Assembly: GCA_963737265.1 (NCBI GenBank) | Contig: CAVTRY010000011.1 | Coordinates: 1,088,001-1,152,000 of the forward strand | Source of the DNA: an uncultured delta proteobacterium | Lineage (GTDB): Bacteria; Myxococcota_A; Polyangia; Fen-1088 | Direction: 5' to 3' | DNA: 64,000 nt | In this document: positions 14,955 through 26,760 of the stretch, one piece after another | Layout: every line of letters begins with the position of its first letter | Position numbering within the stretch: the first letter of the stretch is position 1 | Program-made: the position numbers and the translations under genes | Notes under the pieces: model-generated | What the model saw: only the letters and a program-made list of their open reading frames with translations | Told to the model about the DNA's origin: nothing | Databases searched by the model: none

Positions 14955-16580
14955 ATGCGTCGAATAGCAGCTAAAATGAAACCAGTCAGAAAACAACGAC
15001 CTATACGCGAGGATCGGCGCGCGAGGATGGTCGAACGCGTGACCTCGACGGCATCGGCCGATGTTGCTGTACCATTTGCCCGTCCGGCAAATGACACCGG
15101 TGCTGAACTCGACTTCGTCGGGGATCCCACGGTTGAGCCTGGATTCGGTCGCGTTGTGGACGAACTGGATTCGGTTGCTGACACTCTCGCGGTCGTAGAA
15201 CCGGAGGTTGAGGACGATTCCCTCCCCGCTGTGTTGGCCGCCAACGCTGCCGTGGGTGAGATTGAGCCAGCCGAGGATCTCCCGGACGAACCCGAAGCTG
15301 ACGACGATGCCGACCCCGAGGTTGGCGCCGAGGCAGAGTCCGCGGACTCTGACGATGAGTCCACCGCTGCGACTCCGGGTGGTCCCAAGTCGGACGAGCC
15401 TCAGAGCTTCCTGGCCATGTATTTTCGCGATATGGCAGAGCTATCGGTGCTCAAGCCTGAACAGGAATTTGAAACGGCTCGGCACATCGAAGAGCTGGAA
15501 TTGGACCTTTGGCAGGCCCTGCTCGCCTACACGGCCTGGGCATCGCATCTTGCGATCACAGTCGAAACCGCGATGGGCAGAGCTCTTCCCGAGCTCAAGA
15601 CCTACCGCATGCTCTCCGAGCGCGTCGGCCGCAAGGGGCCGACCCCCGAAAAGCGCAAACTCTCCAAAACCATGGTTGCCTTAGCGGCCCAGCTCAAGGA
15701 GCTCGACATCGACCGAGTCTTTGTTGATGCTGCCCTTACCGAGCTCCAGCGTCTGAGCGGTGCGGCGCGCATGGGGCGCCCGATCGAGAGGCTCGGATTC
15801 AATACCGAGACCAAGCCATTTCAGGAGTTCGCGTCGACCATCACCAACAAGTCCGGAATCGTCAAACGCGCCAAGAATGAGTTCGTGAAGGCAAATCTGC
15901 GCCTCGTGGTTTCCATCGCCCGTCGCTTTAACCATGGACGACTGCCGCTGCCCGACCTAATCCAGGAAGGGAACATCGGCCTCATGAAGGCGGTCGAGCG
16001 CTACGACTACCGACGGGGATTCCGCTTCTCCACCTACGCGAGTTGGTGGATTCGTCACGCCATCAGCCGAGCGCTCGCCGACAAAGGCCGCGCCGTGCGG
16101 TTACCGGTACACATGATCGATGCGTACCATCGCATTGCCAAGTCCGAGCGCGAGCTCCAGTCGAAGCTCGAACGTCCAGCCACGACCGAGGAAATCGCCT
16201 CGGTGACCGGCATCGAGGCCGAGAAGCTGGAAAAGATGCGCACTTTCCTGGCGGACAATCCAGTTTCCCTGGATCGGTCGCTCTCCGAGGACGATGGGCG
16301 CCGCCTCATCGACGTGCTCGTGGATCCCAACGAAGCGCCGAGCCCGCCCGATCAAATGATGAGCAGCGAGACCCAGCAGGAAATGCTCAAACTGCTGAGC
16401 GTCCTCAAACCTATCGAGGCTGACATCCTGCGCAAGCGCTTCGGGCTCATCAACGACCACGAACGCACTCTCAAGGAAATCGGTGACGAATACCGTTTGT
16501 CCCGCGAACGCGTGCGCCAGTTGCAAGAGCAGGCCTTGGGCAAAATGCGCAAGGCAATGGCCAAGCGCGAGATCGTCTAG
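14955..16580 (+). CDS. RNA polymerase sigma factor, RpoD/RpoS-like (probably group 2)
   Basis: Region 1.2 LAMYFRDM, region 2 [12 protein letters not shown]...[16 protein letters not shown]...[10 protein letters not shown], region 4 TLKEIG...SRERVRQL; start uncertain. Confidence 0.92.
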
Positions 16581-16589
16581 CTAGCTAGC

Positions 16590-17528
16590 CTAGCCCTCGG
16601 TCGAAAACGGAGCCAGGATGGTGCCTGGTGGGATGCGGTGCCCCGCCAGGAGTGCCTGGGCGAGCATGCGCTTGCGACCTGGCATTTGAAGCTCGGCGAA
16701 GGCGAGTGCGCCCTCGCCGCAGGCTACCGCGAGACCCGCGGGGACGAGACCTAGGACCTCGCCCGGTCTTCCCGAGCCGGCGACCAACGTAGGCCGAAAG
16801 ACCTTGGTGGGCGCGCCAGCCACAACGACGGTCGCTCCGGGCCACGGGTCAACTCCGCGCGCCTGCGCGGACACGCTCGGAGCTGATTGCCCGAAGTCGA
16901 GCAGACCATCTTCCTTTTTCAGCAATGGCGCGAAGGTCGCGGCTGCGTGGTCCTGCGGCTGCAAAACGACGGTTTCCGCGCCGATCCGCGGAAGGGTTTC
17001 CGCCAGCAACCGTGCCCCGAGCGGCGCCAGGCGGTCGGCCAAAGATCCTGCCGTGTCGTCGTCCCTGATTGCATCCTTGGCAAGAGCCGCGACCGGTCCC
17101 GTGTCGAGTCCCTCTTCCATACGCATGATCGTCACGCCGGTCGTGTGCTCGCCCCGGATGACCGCCCACTGAATCGGTGCCGCGCCCCGAAACTTGGGCA
17201 GGATTGAGGCATGCACATTCCACGGGCCGAGCCGGGGTACGGCGAGAAGGTCGGGCGGAAGAATTCGGCCGTAGGCAACGACGACGAACAAGTCGGGCTC
17301 AAGCGCCATGAGCTCGCGGGCCAGTGCGCCATCACGAAGTTTGGTCGGCTGAAAGACCGGAAGCCCGCGCTGGCTCGCCAGTACCTTGACCGCCGGGGCC
17401 TGAACCTTTCCGCCTCGACCCGCCGGACGATCGGGCTGGGTGACGACGGCGACCACGTCGTGGTGATCGGCCACCGCCACAAGCGATGGAACGGCAAAGT
17501 CGGGCGAGCCGAAAAAAACGATTCGCAC
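16590..17528 (-). CDS. fmt: methionyl-tRNA formyltransferase
   Basis: FFGSPDFA, VTQPDRPAGRG, VVAYGRIL, NVHASILPKFRGAAPIQ, GLDTG. Confidence 0.96.
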   Translation of the reverse strand: MRIVFFGSPDFAVPSLVAVADHHDVVAVVTQPDRPAGRGGKVQAPAVKVLASQRGLPVFQPTKLRDGALARELMALEPDLFVVVAYGRILPPDLLAVPRLGPWNVHASILPKFRGAAPIQWAVIRGEHTTGVTIMRMEEGLDTGPVAALAKDAIRDDDTAGSLADRLAPLGARLLAETLPRIGAETVVLQPQDHAAATFAPLLKKEDGLLDFGQSAPSVSAQARGVDPWPGATVVVAGAPTKVFRPTLVAGSGRPGEVLGLVPAGLAVACGEGALAFAELQMPGRKRMLAQALLAGHRIPPGTILAPFSTEG

Positions 17529-17534
17529 GGCCGG

Positions 17535-18764
17535 TCAGCTTCGCGAAAAGCCCGCAGGCGATGGCGTTGCATCCCGAGACCCCGGCTCGCCGTCCGCGTC
17601 CGGGCCATGGGCCAAGTTGAACTCGTAGGCCGAGCGAAGGACTGGGGTCGAGAGCACGCGCAGTCCCTCGTCGAGCACGTCCTGGATGGTTTCAATCTGT
17701 TGCTTCAATTCATGCCACAGCTCCGGCCCGACGGTTTCGGGTGCGATTTCCTTGCGCAGCCTGGTGTAGGCCCGGCGGACGTCATTCGCGTCCGCGCGGC
17801 GATCGAGACCAAGCGACTGGAAGTAGTCGCTTTCCACGGCAAGCGCGTAGCGAGACTGAATGCGCTCGCGATCGATGCCAAGATCGCGCAAGCCCACCCG
17901 CGCGCCGTCCCGCACACTCGTGCCCGCGTCCACGGGCCGCAACACACCAAAGATGGATAATGTTAGTGCAATCCGCGCCACGGTTGCGTCCGAAAGGCCG
18001 CTGTCTCGAACCACGTCAACGAGCGAACGGATACCGTCGAACAGCGATGGCACACGCGTTTCCGCTTTTTCGGCGGTGGCGGCCAACTCGGACACCGAAT
18101 CCGCCGCGCCCGTAGAGTTGTCGAGCAGGAAGGCGATCTTACCCGTCCCCAAGCGCGCCGCGATCTTGTCGCTGGGGTAGTCGCGCGCCAAGCCCTCGCA
18201 GACGAGCACGATGGGATGGCGAAGCAAGCGGGTTCGGTCGGGCCCCGCGGTGACATTGGGATCGATTTGCCAGCGCCCCGTCGTCCAGGCGAAAAGCGAC
18301 AGAATGATGCTTTCGTAGTGGCGCCGAACGGCGGGCAAAAGCTCATCGCTGCGCAAGAAACCCAAGTCGACCAGAACGGCGCCGACCTTCCGTCCCGTGG
18401 CATCGACTACGCGCACAGTCTCTTTGTTCTGGCGGGCGTCGAGCACGCCTTCGCGGGTGAGCATGGCGAGCATTCGATCGGCGGCATCGTCGGAGGCTGC
18501 CATCACGGGGAGGCCGGCCTCGAAGTAGACCGACTTTTCCGCCTGCTCGCCGCGCACGCGCAGCCGGCCGGTCATGCCTTCAAGGTAGATTCGGCCGAGC
18601 AGCAACGGCATGTCGAGATCGGCCAAATCGCCCCCCACGGCCGGACCGCCGCCGACGACGATGGTGCGCAGCGTGCTCGACATCTCCGCGTCGAGAATGC
18701 CGTCGATGCTTTCGGCGAGCCTCCCGAGCAGCTTGGTCGAATCTTCATTGGTCGGCTTCATCAC
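17535..18764 (-). CDS. DUF4388-like protein with C-terminal J-domain-like region lacking HPD
   Basis: GDLADLDMPLLL...TGRL...KSVYFEAG N-terminal pattern; DYFQSLGL...DVRRAYTRL...APE...LSTPVLRSAY J-like C-terminus. Confidence 0.65.
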   Translation of the reverse strand: MMKPTNEDSTKLLGRLAESIDGILDAEMSSTLRTIVVGGGPAVGGDLADLDMPLLLGRIYLEGMTGRLRVRGEQAEKSVYFEAGLPVMAASDDAADRMLAMLTREGVLDARQNKETVRVVDATGRKVGAVLVDLGFLRSDELLPAVRRHYESIILSLFAWTTGRWQIDPNVTAGPDRTRLLRHPIVLVCEGLARDYPSDKIAARLGTGKIAFLLDNSTGAADSVSELAATAEKAETRVPSLFDGIRSLVDVVRDSGLSDATVARIALTLSIFGVLRPVDAGTSVRDGARVGLRDLGIDRERIQSRYALAVESDYFQSLGLDRRADANDVRRAYTRLRKEIAPETVGPELWHELKQQIETIQDVLDEGLRVLSTPVLRSAYEFNLAHGPDADGEPGSRDATPSPAGFSRS

Positions 18765-21025
18765 AGGACACTCTGCGGATCTACGTCTACCTCAAGACGC
18801 ACGTTGCGGGGAAGCGGCGCACGCTGCATCACTCGGGCCACGGTGAGTAGTTTCGCCCGATCTGTGCCGGACAGCCAGACTTGAAAGCGAGATCGCCCAC
18901 GCAGGCGGGCAATGGGCGCCTCGGACGGTCCCAAGACGCGAACGGCGGAATCCGCCACCGCTCGGGCACGCGACGCCACGGCGCTAGCACCCTCGCGGAC
19001 CGCTTTCTCATCGGGGCTATCCAAGCGCACGGCGACCATGCGCGAAAAGGGCGGATAGCCCGCAGCTTCCCGATGTGACAGCTCGTCCTGCACAAAACCT
19101 TCATAATCGTGCTGCCGCAGAAACTGAATTGCCGGATGCTCCGGACAGTAGGTCTGGACCACGATACGCCCAGCTCGTTCGGCCCGCCCTGCTCTTCCCG
19201 CCACTTGCTCCATGATTTGGAACGTGCGTTCGGCCGCGCGAAAATCCGGCAAATGGATTCCTTGATCGGGCTGCAGAATTCCGACCAAGGTCACGCCGCC
19301 AAAATCGTGGCCCTTGGTCACCATTTGCGTCCCGATGAGAATGTCGATTTCGCCGCGATGAACTTTGGCGAGCAACGCTTCCAGGCGCCCGCCGTCGGCG
19401 GTATCGCGGTCGAGCCGTGCCACCCGCGCTTGCGGGAAGCGCTCCCGCACCAGCGTCTCGACGCGCTCGGTGCCGCTGCCCATGCCTTCAAGGCTTGTTC
19501 CCTTGCACTGCGGACAAATCTCGCGGATTCGCTCCGCGCGACCGCAGTAATGACAGAGCAGGTGAGCGCGGGCTCGATGCAAGGTCAGCGATACCGCGCA
19601 CGAAGGGCAACGCATAACGTGTCCGCAGGCGCGACAGTGAACAAACGTGGAGAAGCCGCGCCGGTTGAGAAACAGGATAGTTTGCTCGCCTGCCGACAGC
19701 GCCTGCTCTACCGCCAGGGCCAAGGGTGGTGAAAGGATGCCATCGCCGCCGGGCGGGTGTCTGCGCAGGTCGATGACCTCGACGGGTGGCAGTGGCCGAT
19801 GGGCCGCCGCTGGGTTGGCCCGTGTCGGCAAGAGCAAGCGGGTGAACCGGCCCAGCACAACATTGCGATAGGTTTCAAGACAGGGTGTCGCGGAGCCCAG
19901 CACGGCGAGCACGTTGCCCTGGCGTGCCCGCATGACGGCGAGGTCGCGGGCGTGGTAGCGAAAGCCCTCCTCCTGTTTGAACGATCCGTCGTGCTCCTCG
20001 TCGACCACGATGACGGCCAGCTCGCGAACCGGGGCAAACACCGCGGACCGCGCGCCGACCGCGATGCCGACCTCGCCACGACGCAACCGCCGCCAGGCAG
20101 CAATTCGCTCGCCCGCCGGCAAGGCGCTGTGCAGGACCGCCACGTCGTCGCCGAAGCGGGCACGAAAGCGCGCGGCGAGCTGGGGTGTCAGCGCAATTTC
20201 GGGCACCAACACCAAGGCGCCGAGCCCACGCTTTCGCGCCTCGGCAATGAGGCGTAGGTAGACTTCCGTCTTGCCTGAGCCGGTGATCCCTTGCAGGACG
20301 AAGGTTCCATAGCCACCGCCCAGCGCCTGCAAAAGTGCGGCGAACGCAGCTTGCTGGTGTTCGTTCAGTTTCGGCAATGCCTCGCCGTCGAAGACCTGAC
20401 GATCGGGGCTGTCTTCGCCGGCCGTCTTTGTCCGCCGTTTGGCCCCTCGGATCGCGTCCGCAACCTCGACGAAACCGCGCTCAACGAGAAAGCTCACGCG
20501 TGCTGCCTCGGCCGACGACGTGCGTGCGAGACCAGTCATGCCGAGCGTCTTCGCCTTCTTCAACCTGGCCAACATCGCGCGATCGCCAGCATCGAGTGCC
20601 ATCGTGGCAAGCGCGGAGGCGCCGGTCGCTTCCGTCGCTCGCCGCCCTGCCTCAGTCAGGTGCACGCGCCGCGAAGACGAAGCGCGCTCTCCGCGCGGCA
20701 GCGCCGCACTCAATACCTCGCCGAGTGGAGCAAGGTAGTAGCTCGCTGCCCATCGGCACAGTTCGAGAACTTGCTCATCGAGTGCCGGTCCGTCGCCTAC
20801 GACCTCCGCGATTTCGCGCACGTCAACCGGCGCTTTCTCGGCGTAGCCGACGACGAATCCAGTGATGGTTCGCCGACCGAACGGCACAACGACCTGTGTT
20901 CCGAGGGGCGCGCGCGCGCCTGGCCGAGGATCGCGATAGGTGAACAGATCCGTCAAGGGAAGCGCAACGGCCACTTCGTACAAGACGCCGCCAGCTCCTC
21001 CGGGTCGCGGGCCGGAGCTACTCAT
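18761..21025 (-). CDS. priA: primosomal protein N' (replication restart helicase)
   Basis: GITGSGKTEVY, DEEH, LGSATP, CRAC/CPSC/CHYC/CPQC Zn motifs, GTQMVTKGHDF, QVAGRAGR. Confidence 0.97.
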   Translation of the reverse strand: MSSSGPRPGGAGGVLYEVAVALPLTDLFTYRDPRPGARAPLGTQVVVPFGRRTITGFVVGYAEKAPVDVREIAEVVGDGPALDEQVLELCRWAASYYLAPLGEVLSAALPRGERASSSRRVHLTEAGRRATEATGASALATMALDAGDRAMLARLKKAKTLGMTGLARTSSAEAARVSFLVERGFVEVADAIRGAKRRTKTAGEDSPDRQVFDGEALPKLNEHQQAAFAALLQALGGGYGTFVLQGITGSGKTEVYLRLIAEARKRGLGALVLVPEIALTPQLAARFRARFGDDVAVLHSALPAGERIAAWRRLRRGEVGIAVGARSAVFAPVRELAVIVVDEEHDGSFKQEEGFRYHARDLAVMRARQGNVLAVLGSATPCLETYRNVVLGRFTRLLLPTRANPAAAHRPLPPVEVIDLRRHPPGGDGILSPPLALAVEQALSAGEQTILFLNRRGFSTFVHCRACGHVMRCPSCAVSLTLHRARAHLLCHYCGRAERIREICPQCKGTSLEGMGSGTERVETLVRERFPQARVARLDRDTADGGRLEALLAKVHRGEIDILIGTQMVTKGHDFGGVTLVGILQPDQGIHLPDFRAAERTFQIMEQVAGRAGRAERAGRIVVQTYCPEHPAIQFLRQHDYEGFVQDELSHREAAGYPPFSRMVAVRLDSPDEKAVREGASAVASRARAVADSAVRVLGPSEAPIARLRGRSRFQVWLSGTDRAKLLTVARVMQRAPLPRNVRLEVDVDPQSVL

Positions 21026-22074
21026 GACCCAGATTCCTCGGTGTGCGCGACGCCGACAAGCAGTTCCGCAACCCTGTCGTAGAGGATCTCAGGGATCTCG
21101 CAGCCCTCCTCGACACCCTGGAGAGCACATGCGAGGTGATTGTCTTCGACGATCGGCACCTTGCTGGTCCGCGCGACATCTTCGATCTTCTGCGCGACCC
21201 GGCGCTCGCCTTTGACCAAAACCACCGGCGCTCCCTGGCCGGTGCGGTCGTAGCGGATGGTCGCCGCCAGCACGCCTCGTTCGACCACGACCAGATCGGC
21301 GCTTTCCACTTCGGCCAGTGCGTGCTGTTGCAAGATTTCACCGTGGAGACGCTGACGTTCCGCCCGGCGCGCGGGATCGCCTTCGTTTTCCTTGTGCTCT
21401 CGCCTTACCTCATCCCGACTCATGCGCAACGATTTCCTATGACGATGGATCTGCCATCCGTAGTCCACGCCGCCGAGCACCACCATAGCCACCGCCAATC
21501 GGAGCCCCAGGATATTTCCCATCTTGGCGATGGTCAGGAGAATCCGCGAGGCCCCTGCGCCACCTAGATGCACGATCTCGGGCGCCCAGGCGCGAAGCGA
21601 CCAATAGCCGACCAAGCCGACGACGGCAATCTTGAGCAGCTCTTTCGCCATTTCCACGCAGGCATCGCGCCCCACGAGTCGACCGCGCGAAGGAACGAGG
21701 CGATTCGTGTCCAACCGGACCCGCCCGAGCGAGAAGAAAGCGCGAGTCTGTGCGAGACCAACGAATAACACGATGGCGACCGTGGCTGTCACGGGAGCAA
21801 CGAGCGCCATGAGCCACTCTCTTAGGCAGGACTGAACCACGCCGGAGAACGACGTTGCGCTGGCAGCCACACCCAGGGTCATGCGCATGGTTGCGACCAA
21901 TCCACCGGCCCAAGACGGACCCGCCGCAATGAGAGCCACGCATGCCGCAAGCGCGCCAAATCCAGAATTGAGATCGCGACTGAGCGCGATCTGCCCCTCG
22001 TGGCGCGCCCGTTCCAGTCGTCGCTGGGTGGGCGCCTCGGTCTTTTCCTCCAGCGCCGGATCAGCCATGGGCAC
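21022..22074 (-). CDS. flhB: FlhB/SctU family type III export switch protein, lacking NPTH
   Basis: EKTEAPTQRRLERARHEGQ, four hydrophobic segments, LRMSRDEVRREHKENEGDP, YDRTGQGAPVVLVKG, VPIVED..LA..L, EIPE.LY..VAELL. Confidence 0.9.
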   Translation of the reverse strand: MPMADPALEEKTEAPTQRRLERARHEGQIALSRDLNSGFGALAACVALIAAGPSWAGGLVATMRMTLGVAASATSFSGVVQSCLREWLMALVAPVTATVAIVLFVGLAQTRAFFSLGRVRLDTNRLVPSRGRLVGRDACVEMAKELLKIAVVGLVGYWSLRAWAPEIVHLGGAGASRILLTIAKMGNILGLRLAVAMVVLGGVDYGWQIHRHRKSLRMSRDEVRREHKENEGDPARRAERQRLHGEILQQHALAEVESADLVVVERGVLAATIRYDRTGQGAPVVLVKGERRVAQKIEDVARTSKVPIVEDNHLACALQGVEEGCEIPEILYDRVAELLVGVAHTEESGS

Positions 22075-22095
22075 GCTGGCGAGTCATCGGGCGCA

Positions 22096-22914
22096 TCATC
22101 GTCCCAGCCGCGCGGCTGCTTGGAAAATGCCGAGAAATTCCTGAAACGTGTGTTGCATGGCCACGTCCAATGTTGCCAGCCCCACCAGCACGGCGCCGAC
22201 GCCCAACAGCGCTTTGAGCGGCATGCCGACGAAGTAGAGTGGAATCTGCGGAGCCGCACGCCCGAGCACCCCAAGCGCGATGTCGGCAAGCAACGACGCA
22301 ACGACCACGGGAGCACACAGGCCAATCGCGGTCTCGATGAGCTTGCCTGACGCACTGATAGTCAGAATGGCCAGCGCGTGCGTGGACTCGCGAAACGGTA
22401 TCTGCGGGGTCAGCGGGATTGCCTCATAGCTGCGTGCCAGAGCCAACGCAACCGTGCCAACACCTCCAATTTCATGGAACACGACGATGAACAGCAGGAG
22501 CATGACGACACCGAGAGGGCTGCTCACCGTCTCGCCTGCCGGGGAGATTGCCTCGGCGAGATTGGCTCCGCGCAGAACGTCCGTCAGCTGTCCCGCGGCT
22601 TCGGCTGCACGAAACGCGCAGGAACAGACGAATCCTATCGCTGTCCCGACGACTGCCTCGCGCCCAACCAGAAGCAACCAGATGAGAATGCCACCCGTGG
22701 GTGGATGCGCAGAAAGCATGGGAAAGCAAAGCGCCGAAAGGCCAATTCCCAGGGCAAGGCGAACCTGGGCCGGCAACGTGGGACCGCCAAATGCCGGAAT
22801 CGACCACACCAGGGGAACGGTTCGCGCGGCACCCAACGCCACAATCAGGAGATCTTGCAGGAGATCTTGCAAGAGATGTTGATCGAGGCTTCCGGGTAGC
22901 AAGGCGGCAGGCAC
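22096..22914 (-). CDS. fliR: FliR/SctT family export gate protein
   Basis: P.FG...P..VR, AGQLTDVLRG, SYEAIP, DIALGVLGRAAPQIPLYFVGMPLK; start trimmed to GTG 22914. Confidence 0.88.
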   Translation of the reverse strand: MPAALLPGSLDQHLLQDLLQDLLIVALGAARTVPLVWSIPAFGGPTLPAQVRLALGIGLSALCFPMLSAHPPTGGILIWLLLVGREAVVGTAIGFVCSCAFRAAEAAGQLTDVLRGANLAEAISPAGETVSSPLGVVMLLLFIVVFHEIGGVGTVALALARSYEAIPLTPQIPFRESTHALAILTISASGKLIETAIGLCAPVVVASLLADIALGVLGRAAPQIPLYFVGMPLKALLGVGAVLVGLATLDVAMQHTFQEFLGIFQAAARLGR

Positions 22915-22915
22915 C

Positions 22916-23194
22916 CTAGCGGATCGTGGGAATTGCGAGCAACAGAGCCTGCGCGAAACGCAAGACTTGCGCACCCAGCAACGGCCCCATCGCAAGCAGA
23001 ACCAAGGCGACCGCCACCAGCTTCGGTACAAAGGCCAGAGTCTGGTCGTGAATCTGCGTCGCTGCTTCCAGAATGCCGACCACGAGCCCCACGGCCAAGC
23101 TTGCAAGAAGCGGCGGCGCGGACACCAGAAGCACCAACATCAGCCCCTCCCGAACCGCGCGCAAAATGACATCCGGAGCCCCGCTGCTAAACAT
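22916..23194 (-). CDS. fliQ: FliQ/SctS family export gate protein
   Basis: SAPPLL...GLVVGILEAATQIHDQTLAFVPKL. Confidence 0.9.
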   Translation of the reverse strand: MFSSGAPDVILRAVREGLMLVLLVSAPPLLASLAVGLVVGILEAATQIHDQTLAFVPKLVAVALVLLAMGPLLGAQVLRFAQALLLAIPTIR

Positions 23195-23909
23195 AACTTT
23201 CCACCAGTCCCCTCAAGAGAAGCTGCCAGCCGTCGGCGAGCACGAAAAGCAGCAGCTTGAAGGGCAGCGACACCGTTGTCGGCGAGAGCATGTGCATGCC
23301 CAGGGCAAGAAGCAGGTTGGATATGACCATGTCCACGACCAAAAACGGAATGAACAGCAGGAATCCGATCTCGAAGGCTCTGCGCAACTCCGTCGTGAGA
23401 AACGCCGGAACCGCGACCAGGAAATCACGATCCGTGATGCCTGCCCTATCCGCCGGCGCCCGCATACGCAGGGCCAGATTGTGGAACAGGTTTCGATCCC
23501 TCGAAGTCCCGTGCTTGAGCAAGAATTCGCGCAGGGGTTCCTTGGCCTTTTCCACCGCCGAGCCCAGCGCCTCTAGACTTTGCCTGCTCAGGAGCTCCGC
23601 GCCGACTCCCTGACCAAGCACCGGCTCGACGGCCCGAAACATCCGCTCCCCCGTTGGCGCCATGACATAGACAGTGAGGATCAAGGCGAGACCGGTAATG
23701 ACCTGCGAGGGTGGAATATTGGGCGTGCCAAGCGCGCTCCTCAAGATCGACAGCACCACGGCGATCTTCACGAAGCTGGTCATGAGCAGCAAAGCGAATG
23801 GCAGAATCGACAGCGCCGCCAGGGCGACAAGAAACAATGCCGGCCGGGAAGAAAATCCCTGCGTCCTGTCCAGGTTCGCAGCAGCCACGCTTGCGACCAG
23901 CGCAGTCAT
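23187..23909 (-). CDS. fliP: FliP/SctR family export gate protein
   Basis: MTSFVKIAVVLSILRSALG...PP, PAFLTTELRRAFEIGFLLFIPFLVVDMV, LGMHMLSP...LPFKLLLFVLADGW. Confidence 0.93.
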   Translation of the reverse strand: MTALVASVAAANLDRTQGFSSRPALFLVALAALSILPFALLLMTSFVKIAVVLSILRSALGTPNIPPSQVITGLALILTVYVMAPTGERMFRAVEPVLGQGVGAELLSRQSLEALGSAVEKAKEPLREFLLKHGTSRDRNLFHNLALRMRAPADRAGITDRDFLVAVPAFLTTELRRAFEIGFLLFIPFLVVDMVISNLLLALGMHMLSPTTVSLPFKLLLFVLADGWQLLLRGLVESYV

Positions 23910-24271
23910 CGTCTGCCCCGCTTTAGCACCCGGACCAAGACGTCAGGGAAAGACGATCCTGTCTGGTCGCCGGCGCCTGCAGCCGGAATGCTTGGCAACG
24001 CCGACTTCTCGATCTCGGCCAGCATCGTCATTGGACCGTCCCCGACACCGACCAAGAAACAGCGCCCGCCCGACTCGATGAGGTAGACCGCTCGGCGAGC
24101 CTCCAGGGCACATCGGCCGATGAGGCGAATGGAACTGTCTCCCCGCCCGACACCACGTCGCGCCAGCCAGCGCAACACTACGAACGCGGCTAAGCAGACG
24201 ATACCCAGGGAAACAAAAGAAAGCGCTAGAGAACTTCCTAGTCCTGGAAGGTCAGACGCTGGCGCATCCAT
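23906..24271 (-). CDS. fliO: FliO-like protein
   Basis: Single TM helix then IRLIGRCALEARRAVYLIESGGRCFLVGVG...LAEI pattern; immediately upstream of and overlapping fliP. Confidence 0.75.
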   Translation of the reverse strand: MDAPASDLPGLGSSLALSFVSLGIVCLAAFVVLRWLARRGVGRGDSSIRLIGRCALEARRAVYLIESGGRCFLVGVGDGPMTMLAEIEKSALPSIPAAGAGDQTGSSFPDVLVRVLKRGRR

Positions 24272-24277
24272 GATCCG

Positions 24278-24307
24278 GAATTACCGCCATCGGGCATTCC
24301 GTGTCAA
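24278..24307 (-). promoter_or_regulatory. candidate sigma70 promoter for the fliO cluster
   Basis: Minus strand TTGACA (24307-24302), then 16-18 nt to a weak -10 GGTAATT a few nt before the fliO ATG. Confidence 0.45.
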
Positions 24308-24328
24308 CCGGGCAATTCACCTCGGGTG

Positions 24329-24958
24329 CTACTCGCCGCCCCGGCTTCGTCCGGCCCGCTTCATGGTCGCAGCCGACTTCGCGGGTGCGCCTGCCCCTAG
24401 ATTCTTCTTCACTTTCGGGGCCGTCGCTGCTTTCGTCTTGGCTTTGGGCTTGGCTTCGCCGGCGGCCGCCGACTTCTCCTTGCCCTTTGCCTTCGCTTCG
24501 CCTGGTTCCTTGCCCTTGGGAGACGGCTTCGCACCGGTCTCGCCGGGCTCACCCGGGATAAGTTCCAGCAAAGCCATGGGGGCTGCGTCGCCCGGACGCT
24601 GGGCCATCTTCACAATGCGGGTGTAACCGCCATGGCGAGAGAGAAAGCGTGGTCCGATTTCCTCGAACAGCTTCATGACCGCATCGCGATCGCGAACCAC
24701 CCGCAACGCCATCCGCACCGCATGTACCATCCGGGCGCGCTCTTCATCCGTCCGCTTGTCGGGCTTCTTGGTGAGAATTCCGCCCAATCGGCGAGCCCAG
24801 GTAATTGCTCGCTCTGCGAGACGACGAATCTCCTTGGCCTTGACCTCCGTGGTGCGAATGCGCTCGTAGGTGAGCAACGCCGCCACCATGTTGGAGAATA
24901 GCGCCTTGCGGTGCGCCGCCGTTCGGGAAAGATGTAGTCCAGCTCTCTTGTGTCGCAT
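24329..24958 (-). CDS. rplQ: 50S ribosomal protein L17 with basic C-terminal extension
   Basis: MRHKR...HRKAL...RIRTTEVKAKE...GGYTRIVK...GDAAPMA. Confidence 0.96.
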   Translation of the reverse strand: MRHKRAGLHLSRTAAHRKALFSNMVAALLTYERIRTTEVKAKEIRRLAERAITWARRLGGILTKKPDKRTDEERARMVHAVRMALRVVRDRDAVMKLFEEIGPRFLSRHGGYTRIVKMAQRPGDAAPMALLELIPGEPGETGAKPSPKGKEPGEAKAKGKEKSAAAGEAKPKAKTKAATAPKVKKNLGAGAPAKSAATMKRAGRSRGGE

Positions 24959-25032
24959 GTTGGCCTAGGTACTCGTTGGCTCTGCCTGTTTACAATTCCT
25001 GCCTGTTGTCGCCTGGCTCTGCTTGAGAACGC

Positions 25033-26079
25033 CTAGGCCTTCTTCGGCGGACCGTCGCCCGGCCAGCCTTCCAGCTTCATGCCGAGAGAGAGCCCCATCG
25101 CAGCCAGGATCTCTTTGATTTCCTTGAGCGACTTGCGTCCAAAGTTCTTGGTCTTGAGCATGTCGGATTCGGTCTTCTGCACCAGCTCGCCGATGTAGCG
25201 GATGTTGGCATTCTGCAAGCAGTTTGCCGAGCGAACCGACAATTCCAAATCATCGACCGACTTCCACAAGTTCTCGTTGAGCTTCTGTTGCTCTTCGGAA
25301 ACCGTCGCTTCCGGGGCCGGCTCCGCGCCCTCCTGGAAGTTGATGAAGATAGAAAGCTGGTCCTTGAAGATCTTGGCCGCGTAAGCAACGGCGTCCTCGG
25401 GACTCACCGTGCCGTTCGTCCACACTTCGAGGGTCAAACGGTCGTAGTCGGTCTGCTGGCCAACGCGCGCGTTGGTCACCGCGAAATTGACCTTGTGAAC
25501 CGGCGAGAAAAGAGAATCGATGGGCACCACGCCGACCGGCATGTTCGGCTGTTTGTTGCGGTCGGCTGGCACGTAGCCGCGCCCCACCCCGATCTCCAAC
25601 TCCATGCGAACCTTGGCCCCCTTGGAGCAGGTCATGACGTGATGGTCTGGGTTCAAAATCTCGATGCCTTCCGGGCACTGAATATCCTTGGCGGTGACCT
25701 TTCCTTCCCCATCCTTGTCAATCCGCACCGTGCGCGGCTTGCCGTCGTGGGAAAGGATGATCACTTCCTTCAGGTTCAGCACGATGTCCGTAACATCCTC
25801 GGCCACCTCGGGCAACGAGGTGAACTCGTGCACGGCGCCCTCGATTTTCACGGAGGTGATAGCCGCGCCTTGCAGCGATGACAACAACACCCGGCGGATG
25901 CCGTTGCCTATGGTCGTTCCGAAGCCGCGCTCAAGCGGCTCACAGGTAAACTTCCCATAGGTTGGCGTCAACGATTCGACATCCACCTCAAGCTTGCGCG
26001 GCTTGATGAGGTCTCGCCAATTCCTCGCAATAAACGTAGACGGCGTGACAGCGGCGGTCTGGGCACTAGCGCTCGACAT
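25033..26079 (-). CDS. rpoA: RNA polymerase alpha subunit
   Basis: [32 protein letters not shown]. Confidence 0.98.
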
Positions 26080-26130
26080 CCTGTTCTCCTGTTAGATTCT
26101 AGGAATCAAAAAACTTCGCGGCGGCGTTCG

Positions 26131-26760
26131 CTACTTAGAATAAAGTTCGACGACGAGCTGCTCGCGAACCGTCATCGTGAGGTCTTCTCGCGACGGCAAC
26201 GTCACGAGCTTGCCCTGAAAATTGTCCTTGTCGAGTTGCAGCCATTTGGGCACGCCTCGACGATCAACGGCACCCAGGCTCTCAAGGATACGGGTCACCT
26301 TCCGCGACGGCTCGCATACCACGATGCTGTCGTTCATACCGCAAAGAAAGGACGGAATGTTCACTTTCTTCCCGTTGACCAGGAAATGACCGTGACGAAC
26401 CAACTGCCTTGCCTCGGCGTGATCGGACGCGAAACCAAGACGGTACACCACGTTGTCGAAACGACGTTCCAGCAATTGCAGCAGGTTTTCGCCGGCAACC
26501 CCCTTCATGGAAGTTGCCTTCTTGTAGTAGCCGCGGAACTGGCGCTCTGCTAGCCCATACATGCGCTTCAGCTTCTGCTTCTCTCGCAATTGCGAGCCAT
26601 AGTTGGAAAGTTTTCTTCGTCGCGCCTGCCCATGCTGGCCAGGAGCGTACGCTCGTCGTTCGTAACCACATTTGTCGGTGTAGCAGCGGTCGCCCTTCAG
26701 GAAGAGCTTGGTGTCTTCCCGGCGACATAGGCGGCAAACCGGACCGGAATACTTCGCCAT
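26131..26760 (-). CDS. rpsD: 30S ribosomal protein S4 (Zn-binding type)
   Basis: CRLCRRE...C...[20 protein letters not shown]. Confidence 0.98.

Follow-up and report, generated by a model that had tools for sequence, protein, structure and literature searches.

The window analysed here is a stretch of 64,000 nucleotides of contig CAVTRY010000011.1 (positions 1,088,001 to 1,152,000 of the forward strand; assembly GCA_963737265.1), from an uncultured delta proteobacterium of the Polyangia (Myxococcota). It contains an export gate gene of the FlhB/SctU family, hereafter flhB*, in which the site of the self-cleavage motif Asn-Pro-Thr-His (NPTH) reads Glu-Arg-Gly-Val (ERGV). The gene and its parts are:

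21022..22074, minus strand: flhB*/sctU-like gene, 350 amino acids (aa) (PF01312 270.3 bits; TIGR00328 225 and TIGR01404 223 bits, both below cut-off)
21430..22074, minus strand: N-terminal membrane domain, about residues 1-215 (AlphaFold2 (AF2) model, Foldseek)
21025..21429, minus strand: cytoplasmic domain, about residues 216-350 (AF2 model, Foldseek)
21271..21282, minus strand: ERGV codons at the NPTH site (sequence, phmmer alignment, AF2 model)

The open reading frame (ORF) of flhB* is intact and encodes 350 aa from GTG 22074; the likelier start is ATG 22068, giving MAD..., as in the orthologues. The protein matched PF01312 (Bac_export_2) over profile positions 1-333 of 335 with 270.3 bits (cut-off 24.4), and scored below both the FlhB equivalog TIGR00328 (225.4 bits, cut-off 349.25) and the SctU equivalog TIGR01404 (222.8 bits, cut-off 358). 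In a phmmer search of all PDB chains the best matches were flagellar FlhB chains (E 9e-35 to 4e-25), followed by the cytoplasmic domains of EscU, YscU, PscU and SpaS. The alignment with a 383-aa flagellar FlhB chain covers flhB* residues 202-304 with zero gaps; the chain segment ...ADVIVTNPTHYSVALQYD stands over the flhB* segment ...ADLVVVERGVLAATIRYD, and E265, R266, G267 and V268 take the positions of N269, P270, T271 and H272. The minus-strand codons 21282-21271 are GAA CGA GGC GTG, which by our count differ by about 8 bases from AAY, CCN, ACN and CAY, the codons that normally encode N, P, T and H. The flanking motifs EGDP (231-234), APVVLVKG (282-289), VPIVED (306-311) and EIPE (326-329) are kept. 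Codons and gap-free alignment agree with the sequence-only reading of this locus, which had claimed that ERGV replaces NPTH in an intact frame with EGDP, AP.V..KG, VPIVED and EIPE retained. The loss takes both the catalytic Asn, which is the nucleophile, and the Pro, E265-R266 standing where self-cleaving switch proteins require Asn-Pro. In PMC4620466, SpaS N258A shows no cleavage and secretes early but not middle or late substrates, P259A shows partial cleavage and an intermediate phenotype, and T260A and H261A are normal.

An AF2 model of the flhB* protein was built from a 15-row alignment (mean predicted local distance difference test score, pLDDT, 78.7). It has four helices in the membrane domain (33-72, 76-110, 136-168 and 175-215, with a low-confidence loop at 111-135) followed by an alpha/beta cytoplasmic domain, which is the architecture of FlhB/SctU proteins. 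Foldseek matched the membrane domain to FlhB in the FliPQR-FlhB complex (6s3l_K, template modelling score TMt 0.62) and the cytoplasmic domain to those of FlhB, EscU, YscU, CT091 and PscU with probability 1.00, the root-mean-square deviation being 1.2-1.8 Å over 89-98 columns for most top matches and near 8 Å for a few YscU mutant chains. The predicted cytoplasmic domain has thus kept the family fold; in the model E265 is the last residue of strand 261-265, and the turn leading into strand 269-274 is made by R-G-V (block mean pLDDT about 90). The early-substrate docking pocket of Salmonella FlhB is formed by A286, P287, A341 and L344 (PMC9307174), which correspond by phmmer alignment to A282 and P283 (nt 21226-21231), A336 (21067-21069) and L339 (21058-21060) of flhB*, all four residues being kept and the first three invariant in alignment A1. 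Among 41 representative proteins without Asn-Pro (described below), A occupies the first pocket position in 33, P the second in 39 and A the third in 40; the fourth holds L in 24 and one of M, V, I and F in a further 14.

To determine how widely the motif is lost, orthologues were aligned. A contig scan with the single window protein gave 81 pattern matches, 0 of them confirmed; the scan with alignment A1 gave 366 relatives, and the best 80 of these 366 were used as related loci. Among the genomes of 60 relatives, an orthologue of flhB* was present in 36/36 family genomes searched (38-47% identity), and the matches contained no stop, truncation or frameshift. Asn is absent in nine of the ten same-genus orthologues examined, window included (three further genus members gave weaker matches and no locus and were left out of this count): the site reads ERGV in the window, QSGV in three genomes, EPGV in two, and QDGV, DPGV, DPGR and NPHV in one each. 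It reads DGDR or DDDR in a second clade of wetland and soil metagenome-assembled genomes (MAGs), and GLEH with a four-residue insert in one lineage; the remaining family members have mostly NPDH or NPEH and in a few cases NPTH. In a tree of 87 distinct rows (motif columns left out, quick IQ-TREE search, LG+G4, support by the Shimodaira-Hasegawa-like approximate likelihood ratio test, SH-aLRT, alone), the rplQ-linked rows formed a clade of 51 (SH-aLRT 99), 20 of which lack the Asn, with a minimum of 4 changes of Asn state on the tree. Asn-Pro is present in all 36 rows outside this clade (34 NPTH, 1 NPDH, 1 NPTQ), which comprise Polyangiales, Sorangium, Myxococcaceae and flagellar FlhBs of other phyla. 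The closest of 1.84 billion representative proteins searched with HMMER was a metagenomic sequence (P0001, 71% identity) that also reads ERGV, and among the best 150 representatives 41 lacked Asn-Pro (38 lacked the Asn), 107 had Asn-Pro and 2 were fragments. Since about 8 bases differ, 36/36 outside rows keep Asn-Pro and P0001 reads ERGV, the replacement is beyond chance or error. Sequencing error and strain-specific decay were considered and are ruled out by ERGV in P0001 and by the Asn loss in same-genus orthologues. The loss is therefore clade-wide (9/10 same-genus orthologues, 20/51 clade rows, 38/150 representatives), and close orthologues, including the 71%-identical P0001, have not retained NPTH.

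flhB* is the last of a run of gate genes on the minus strand, whose members and neighbours are:

24329..26079, minus strand: rplQ (24329-24958) and rpoA (25033-26079), directly upstream of fliO (Pfam)
23906..24271, minus strand: fliO (PF04347 49 bits; TIGR03500 52.2 bits, cut-off 55.25)
23187..23909, minus strand: fliP/sctR (PF00813 221.5 bits)
22916..23194, minus strand: fliQ/sctS (PF01313 89.8 bits)
22096..22914, minus strand: fliR/sctT (PF01311 153.6 bits; TIGR01401 SctT 131 vs TIGR01400 FliR 120 bits)
18761..21025, minus strand: priA (PriA Pfam domains)

The full order is rpoA-rplQ-fliO-fliP-fliQ-fliR-flhB-priA-DUF4388-fmt, rpoA and rplQ closing the ribosomal-protein gene block and the gate genes coming next, and flhB* lies directly downstream of fliO-P-Q-R on the same strand, as is usual for the FlhB/SctU family. 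fliP/sctR scored 251 bits with NF009438 (cut-off 179), 219.8 with TIGR01102 SctR (208.6) and 203 with TIGR01103 FliP (217). The likely start of fliR is GTG 22914, two bases past the fliQ stop; a longer ORF to 23106 runs into fliQ, and the PF01311 match begins at residue 88 of it. The priA ATG and the flhB* stop overlap as ATGA (21025-22), implying co-transcription and translational coupling. Related Polyangia loci of sufficient length preserve rpoA-rplQ-fliO-P-Q-R-flhB, and most related loci preserve flhB-priA, with or without intervening genes; these loci come from MAGs titled Polyangia, Myxococcales, delta-proteobacterium or Proteobacteria.

A scan of positions 16000-26500 for sigma-70 promoters and terminators gave no more matches than shuffled sequence did and, under its own rule, none in the rplQ-fliO interval. 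The rplQ-fliO spacer (57 bases, 24272-24328, minus strand) has a perfect TTGACA at 24307-24302 with GGTAAT 16 bases later, about 9 bases before the fliO ATG; the consensus scan did not list it, the second base of the second hexamer not being A. Judged from these hexamers, the pair may serve as an internal promoter, in which case the fliO transcript would be near-leaderless. Several relatives have a PilZ-domain gene between rplQ and fliO (loci L082:763-1308, L072:2396-2818, L096:1852-2421 and L085:428-853, all plus strand), which is absent from the 57-base spacer of the window and hints at control of the apparatus by cyclic di-GMP in the lineages that have it. One to three extra genes with no Pfam match lie between fliR and flhB in L082 (3786-5967), L085 (3250-5970) and L072 (5193-5942), all on the plus strand, and are candidate accessory parts or substrates; some of the relatives' loci with extra genes have a nucleotidyl-transferase gene between flhB and priA.

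The genome of the window (6.55 Mb, 25 contigs) was searched for further type III genes. Two of five scored PF01312 candidates matched, both full-length. The second FlhB, which reads NPTH, lies on the same contig (C11) inside a complete flagellar regulon at 60-106 kb that contains FliM/N, FliP, FliQ, FliR, FlhB, FlhA, FliI, FliG and FliF as well as five rod/hook-family and two flagellin-family genes; a second, NPTH-bearing copy, which the sequence-only reading had suggested might exist, is thus present. A gene for the FlhB C-terminal part alone, the other possibility raised there, was not found in the genome by the PF01312 search, which does find ORFs of this kind (93-104 aa) in Myxococcus-type genomes. 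flhB* is accordingly a paralogue, in a second apparatus whose genes are distributed over four loci, each on its own contig or region: the FliO-SctRSTU gate between rplQ and priA, SctV2 (a second FHIPEP protein), standing by itself with hisD on one side and a proA-like gene on the other, SctL-SctN (a further FliH-like protein paired with FliI/SctN) on another contig, and an SctJ-type lipoprotein gene that adjoins a FliA/WhiG-family sigma factor beside pspA and holB. SctV (698 vs 692 bits), SctN (609 vs 605) and SctR (220 vs 209) passed the non-flagellar equivalog cut-offs, and SctJ fell just under its own (159.5 vs 162). In family searches of the genome no second match for FliG, FliM/N, rod, hook or flagellin was found, all matches lying in the flagellar cluster, and its only two secretins are far from all four loci. 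The needle family PF09392 gave no match in the genome nor in any control genome, so that this search lacks a positive control, and the ruler family FliK (PF02120) gave none genome-wide, the flagellar system included, and is hence uninformative on the second apparatus. The proposal that flhB* serves an apparatus without hook or needle therefore finds support in the second apparatus, for which the searches revealed neither rod, hook or needle genes nor any for a C-ring or filament, and fails for the genome as a whole, with its complete flagellar regulon.

SctV2 was found in 34/36 and SctJ in 35/36 family genomes (11/12 and 12/12 genus genomes, respectively). The second apparatus is independent of the flagellum, since five relatives of 90-100% completeness, none with a flagellar rod-family (PF00460) match, carry it: each has SctV2 and SctJ matches and a single FlhB match, the second-system orthologue, with the Asn absent in three (G001, G009, G027) and NPDH in two (G017, G030). 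The FliA/WhiG-family sigma factor gene (L049:10534-11223, minus strand, on contig C7 of the window's genome, G000) is directly upstream of sctJ, and the pair recurs in 10/11 loci examined in relatives (the eleventh being a short one), among them loci of genomes that have no flagellar rod genes. Its position suggests that this factor, instead of being the flagellar sigma-28, may specifically regulate the second apparatus.

Among known systems, flagellar FlhB of the Salmonella/Vibrio type (PDB 6s3l, 3b0z, 6z0w) has in common with flhB* the full-length PF01312 architecture, the gene position after fliO-P-Q-R and the pocket described above. It differs in reading NPTH (NPEH in the Vibrio-type chain) where flhB* reads ERGV, and flhB*, unlike it, is unlinked to rod, hook and filament genes and occurs in genomes that have none. 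The engineered non-cleaving mutants FlhB N269A, SpaS N258A, YscU N263A and EscU N262A/P263A resemble flhB* in lacking the Asn and preserving the fold, flhB* lacking the Pro as well, and the top Foldseek targets of flhB* include the single-chain mutant structures 3bzp, 3bzr, 3c03, 2v5g and 2jlh. Those mutants are loss-of-function alleles of systems dependent on switching (PMC4620466 and PMC7911332), whereas the change in flhB* is natural and, under purifying selection, has become fixed in whole clades, the motif having been lost at least four times.

[quoted passage not shown] The 'Myxo' list comprises export apparatus, ATPase, SctJ, SctI and in some cases SctD, again without secretin or needle; in the second apparatus we found SctRSTUV, SctN, SctL and SctJ, SctI and SctD not having been searched for and the needle search having no positive control. 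The published 'Myxo' systems have been reported from Cystobacterineae only, a different class from the hosts of the second apparatus. Myxococcus-type genes form a cluster at one locus, whereas those of the second apparatus are spread over four loci among housekeeping genes. Two Myxococcus-type genomes each carry three SctV/FlhA and three FlhB/SctU genes plus a small ORF for the C-terminal part of FlhB. Their FlhB/SctU homologues keep Asn-Pro in 3/3 cases. The nearest counterpart of SctV2 (48%) is the SctV encoded at the locus with an NPDH-bearing SctU, NPDH being also the variant that flhB* orthologues show most often; the other two SctU read NPTH. SctU identity between the Myxococcus-type proteins and flhB* is about 30%. 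The second apparatus thus resembles the needle-less 'Myxo' system while being scattered and very divergent, a likeness that stops short of an established orthology with any one published locus. The chlamydial type III system has a needle, a secretin and a translocon, and its SctU (CT091) autocleaves; the title of PDB entry 3t7y, a Foldseek match of flhB*, calls its CT091 structure an 'autocleavage-inactive mutant'. Scattered loci are common to this system and the second apparatus, the core genes of the Chlamydiales T3SS lying at several loci (PMC3459982).

Selection on the gate genes was estimated as the ratio of nonsynonymous to synonymous substitution rates (dN/dS; Nei-Gojobori, our own script) in non-overlapping close pairs with dS 0.05-0.6, five pairs per group. 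In the Asn-less pairs the cytoplasmic domain of FlhB had a dN/dS of 0.19-0.35 (median 0.29; membrane domain median 0.28), and in the NPDH pairs 0.03-0.17 (median 0.03; membrane domain median 0.21), an approximately ten-fold difference between medians with ranges that do not overlap. With values well below 1, the cytoplasmic domain of the Asn-less lineages is still under purifying selection. Medians for FliP, FliQ and FliR were 0.11, 0.12 and 0.14 in the Asn-less pairs (range 0.04-0.29), similar to L17 and PriA of the same loci, and 0.23, 0.13 and 0.14 in the NPDH pairs. One pair (L084/L094) had short, ill-matched FliP, L17 and PriA segments (n = 131-183 codons, dN/dS 0.40-0.52) that we took as artefacts and that raise the medians of the Asn-bearing group. 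Because FliP, FliQ and FliR are constrained like housekeeping genes, the relaxation is specific to the cytoplasmic domain of FlhB.

The motif loss, its clade-wide spread, the fold, the composition of the system and the selection pattern lead us to favour, with a probability of about 0.62, the reading that flhB* is a naturally non-autocleaving FlhB/SctU paralogue and the fifth gate subunit of a second, flagellum-independent and non-switching type III-like export apparatus found across uncultured Polyangia. In this reading the membrane domain would wrap the SctRST core as in the flagellar FliPQR-FlhB complex, and the cytoplasmic domain would retain the family fold and its hydrophobic docking pocket. 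With Glu and Arg for Asn and Pro, the chain would be unable to cut itself, and the C-terminal subdomain would stay covalently attached; the same would apply to the other Asn-less forms, with the docking pocket intact. According to PMC4620466 cleavage of SpaS is constitutive and needed for a switch-competent conformation, and FlhB N269A is deficient in late-substrate export (PMC7911332). A 2026 model (PMC13344023) has the cleaved C-terminal subdomain (FlhB-CCD) hold the flagellar gate in early mode until its FliK-dependent ejection, which triggers the switch. As this flagellar model makes the change to late substrates dependent on ejecting the cleaved subdomain, the gate would, with its subdomain tethered, be locked in one, 'early-type', specificity state, and the apparatus would be limited to a single substrate class, as the sequence-only reading had supposed. 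By analogy with the mutants, non-cleavage of the flhB* protein is very likely, and that it is a functional, non-switching gate subunit is a good deal less certain while still probable; the NPDH and NPEH orthologues probably still cleave. A non-switching gate fits an apparatus for which the searches gave no rod, hook, needle or ruler to be timed.

Several points weigh against this reading. Non-cleavage rests on homology to mutants of other species. NP[D/E/T]H is kept in 31/51 rows of the same needle-less apparatus and in 3/3 Myxococcus-type homologues; cleavage is thus normally kept without a needle, and the loss is not a simple consequence of architecture, so that the absence of a hook or needle, offered earlier as fitting a gate of this kind, is insufficient alone to explain it. 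Nor does the reading account for the very strong constraint under which most sister lineages with this reduced apparatus retain the motif; these lineages either still switch substrate classes or need the cleaved conformation for something else. The bin has an estimated contamination of 7.6%, and SctV2, SctN2 and SctJ, whose contigs are not that of flhB*, are assigned to this organism because they are present in the relatives; small divergent rod or needle proteins would escape Pfam searches. A search for expression data, which covered four runs, found no RNA data. The dN/dS comparison is based on few pairs, the NPDH pairs mostly from one subclade, with GC-rich third positions and a counts method in place of a likelihood model, and the ten-fold rise fits a partial loss of cytoplasmic-domain function equally well.

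This last point leads to the main rival reading, a partial relic, in which the membrane domain alone is needed in the SctRST gate, the cytoplasmic domain is drifting and the NPTH loss is a symptom. The cytoplasmic-domain dN/dS speaks for it, its median going up from 0.03 to 0.29 and so drawing level with the membrane domain, as do the hypervariability of the Asn-less motif site (ERGV, QSGV, QDGV, EPGV, DPGV, DPGR, DGDR, GLEH and about 30 more) and the rank of FlhB as the least conserved gate subunit (38-50% identity, where FliP of these loci has 62-80%). A drifting domain is, however, hard to reconcile with dN/dS values of 0.19-0.35, with orthologue matches free of truncation, frameshift and stop, with a docking pocket and about 20 further cytoplasmic positions that are invariant or nearly so, and with a confident prediction of the domain in the family fold, and we consider a partial relic unlikely. 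Much less probable still is decay of the whole second apparatus in the genus, with flhB* becoming a pseudogene: many canonical parts are absent, the genes are scattered and the terminal branch of the window protein is long (0.56), but FliP, FliQ and FliR of the Asn-less pairs have dN/dS values (0.04-0.29) in the low range of L17 and PriA, related loci of sufficient length preserve the gene order, SctV2 and SctJ are near-universal in the genus, and flhB* is translationally coupled to priA. It is similarly improbable that the protein is split by other chemistry elsewhere in the chain or by a separate protease and switches normally. A SpaS engineered for cutting by an external protease is fully functional, the cut mattering and not its manner (PMC4620466); against such a split, no candidate site or dedicated protease was seen adjoining any of the four loci, and the unconserved loop sequence of the Asn-less relatives speaks against a new specific site. 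That flhB* is an alternative, 'early-only' gate subunit of the flagellum beside the canonical FlhB, as the flagellar-type fliO, the marginally higher score with the flagellar than with the SctU equivalog (225 vs 223 bits) and the flagellar best PDB matches might suggest, is largely refuted by the five rod-less relatives (90-100% complete) whose single FlhB match is the second-system orthologue and by the second system's own SctV, SctN, SctL and SctJ.

flhB* is a recognisable FlhB/SctU protein that fails the best-known functional hallmark of its family, in a little-known needle-less type III-like system. To our knowledge, NPTH autocleavage is treated as a hallmark of every FlhB/SctU protein. 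A full-text literature search, with most subscription journals outside its reach, found engineered NPTH mutants and deletions only and no description of a natural motif-less FlhB/SctU, nor of a scattered type III-like system in Polyangia. The second, scattered apparatus is widespread in uncultured soil and wetland Polyangia; in it the cut was removed at least four times while the other gate parts are under strong selection and close sisters keep NPDH. These matched natural Asn-less and NPDH pairs bear on whether cleavage serves export itself or switching only, on which cytoplasmic-domain residues serve switching and which docking, and on the cargo of a needle-less type III system. A bolder extension, which we regard as doubtful, is a vertically inherited, appendage-less type III channel in Polyangia for constitutive inner-membrane export, working neither as flagellum nor as injectisome, wired into housekeeping operons (rpoA-rplQ-fliOPQR-flhB-priA-fmt, hisD-sctV and holB-pspA-sctJ-sigma) and having dispensed with the self-cleaving switch in several lineages; if true, it would show by natural example that FlhB/SctU cleavage serves substrate-class switching alone and is unneeded for type III export as such, and would provide a living model of a possible pre-flagellar or pre-injectisome exporter.

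Some further observations concern the other type III genes of the relatives. In many relatives the SctV2 match is split (query about 5-465 and 508-719) within one open frame (e.g. G010:C24, G002:C16 and G009:C239), and the family therefore has a hypervariable linker (about residues 462-507) joining the membrane domain to the cytoplasmic one. Directly 3' of the NPDH-type SctU gene, two Myxococcus-type genomes have an ORF of 93-104 aa (L167:2566-2877 and L168:2583-2861, both plus strand) that matches FlhB/SctU past the cleavage site only and starts at about the NPTH loop (DPEM); from its extent, it looks like a free-standing copy of the cleaved C-terminal subdomain. Loci L097, L108 and L114 (Myxococcus sp., Myxococcaceae and a Myxococcales MAG) have a FliP-FliQ-FliR-FlhB-FlhA locus that groups with the flagellar gate of the window's genome (G000:C11:64-70 kb) with SH-aLRT 100, at 64-65% identity for FlhA and FliP and 48-49% for FlhB, suggesting that non-flagellated Myxococcaceae may keep a remnant of the ancestral myxobacterial flagellar gate beside two other SctV/SctU sets.

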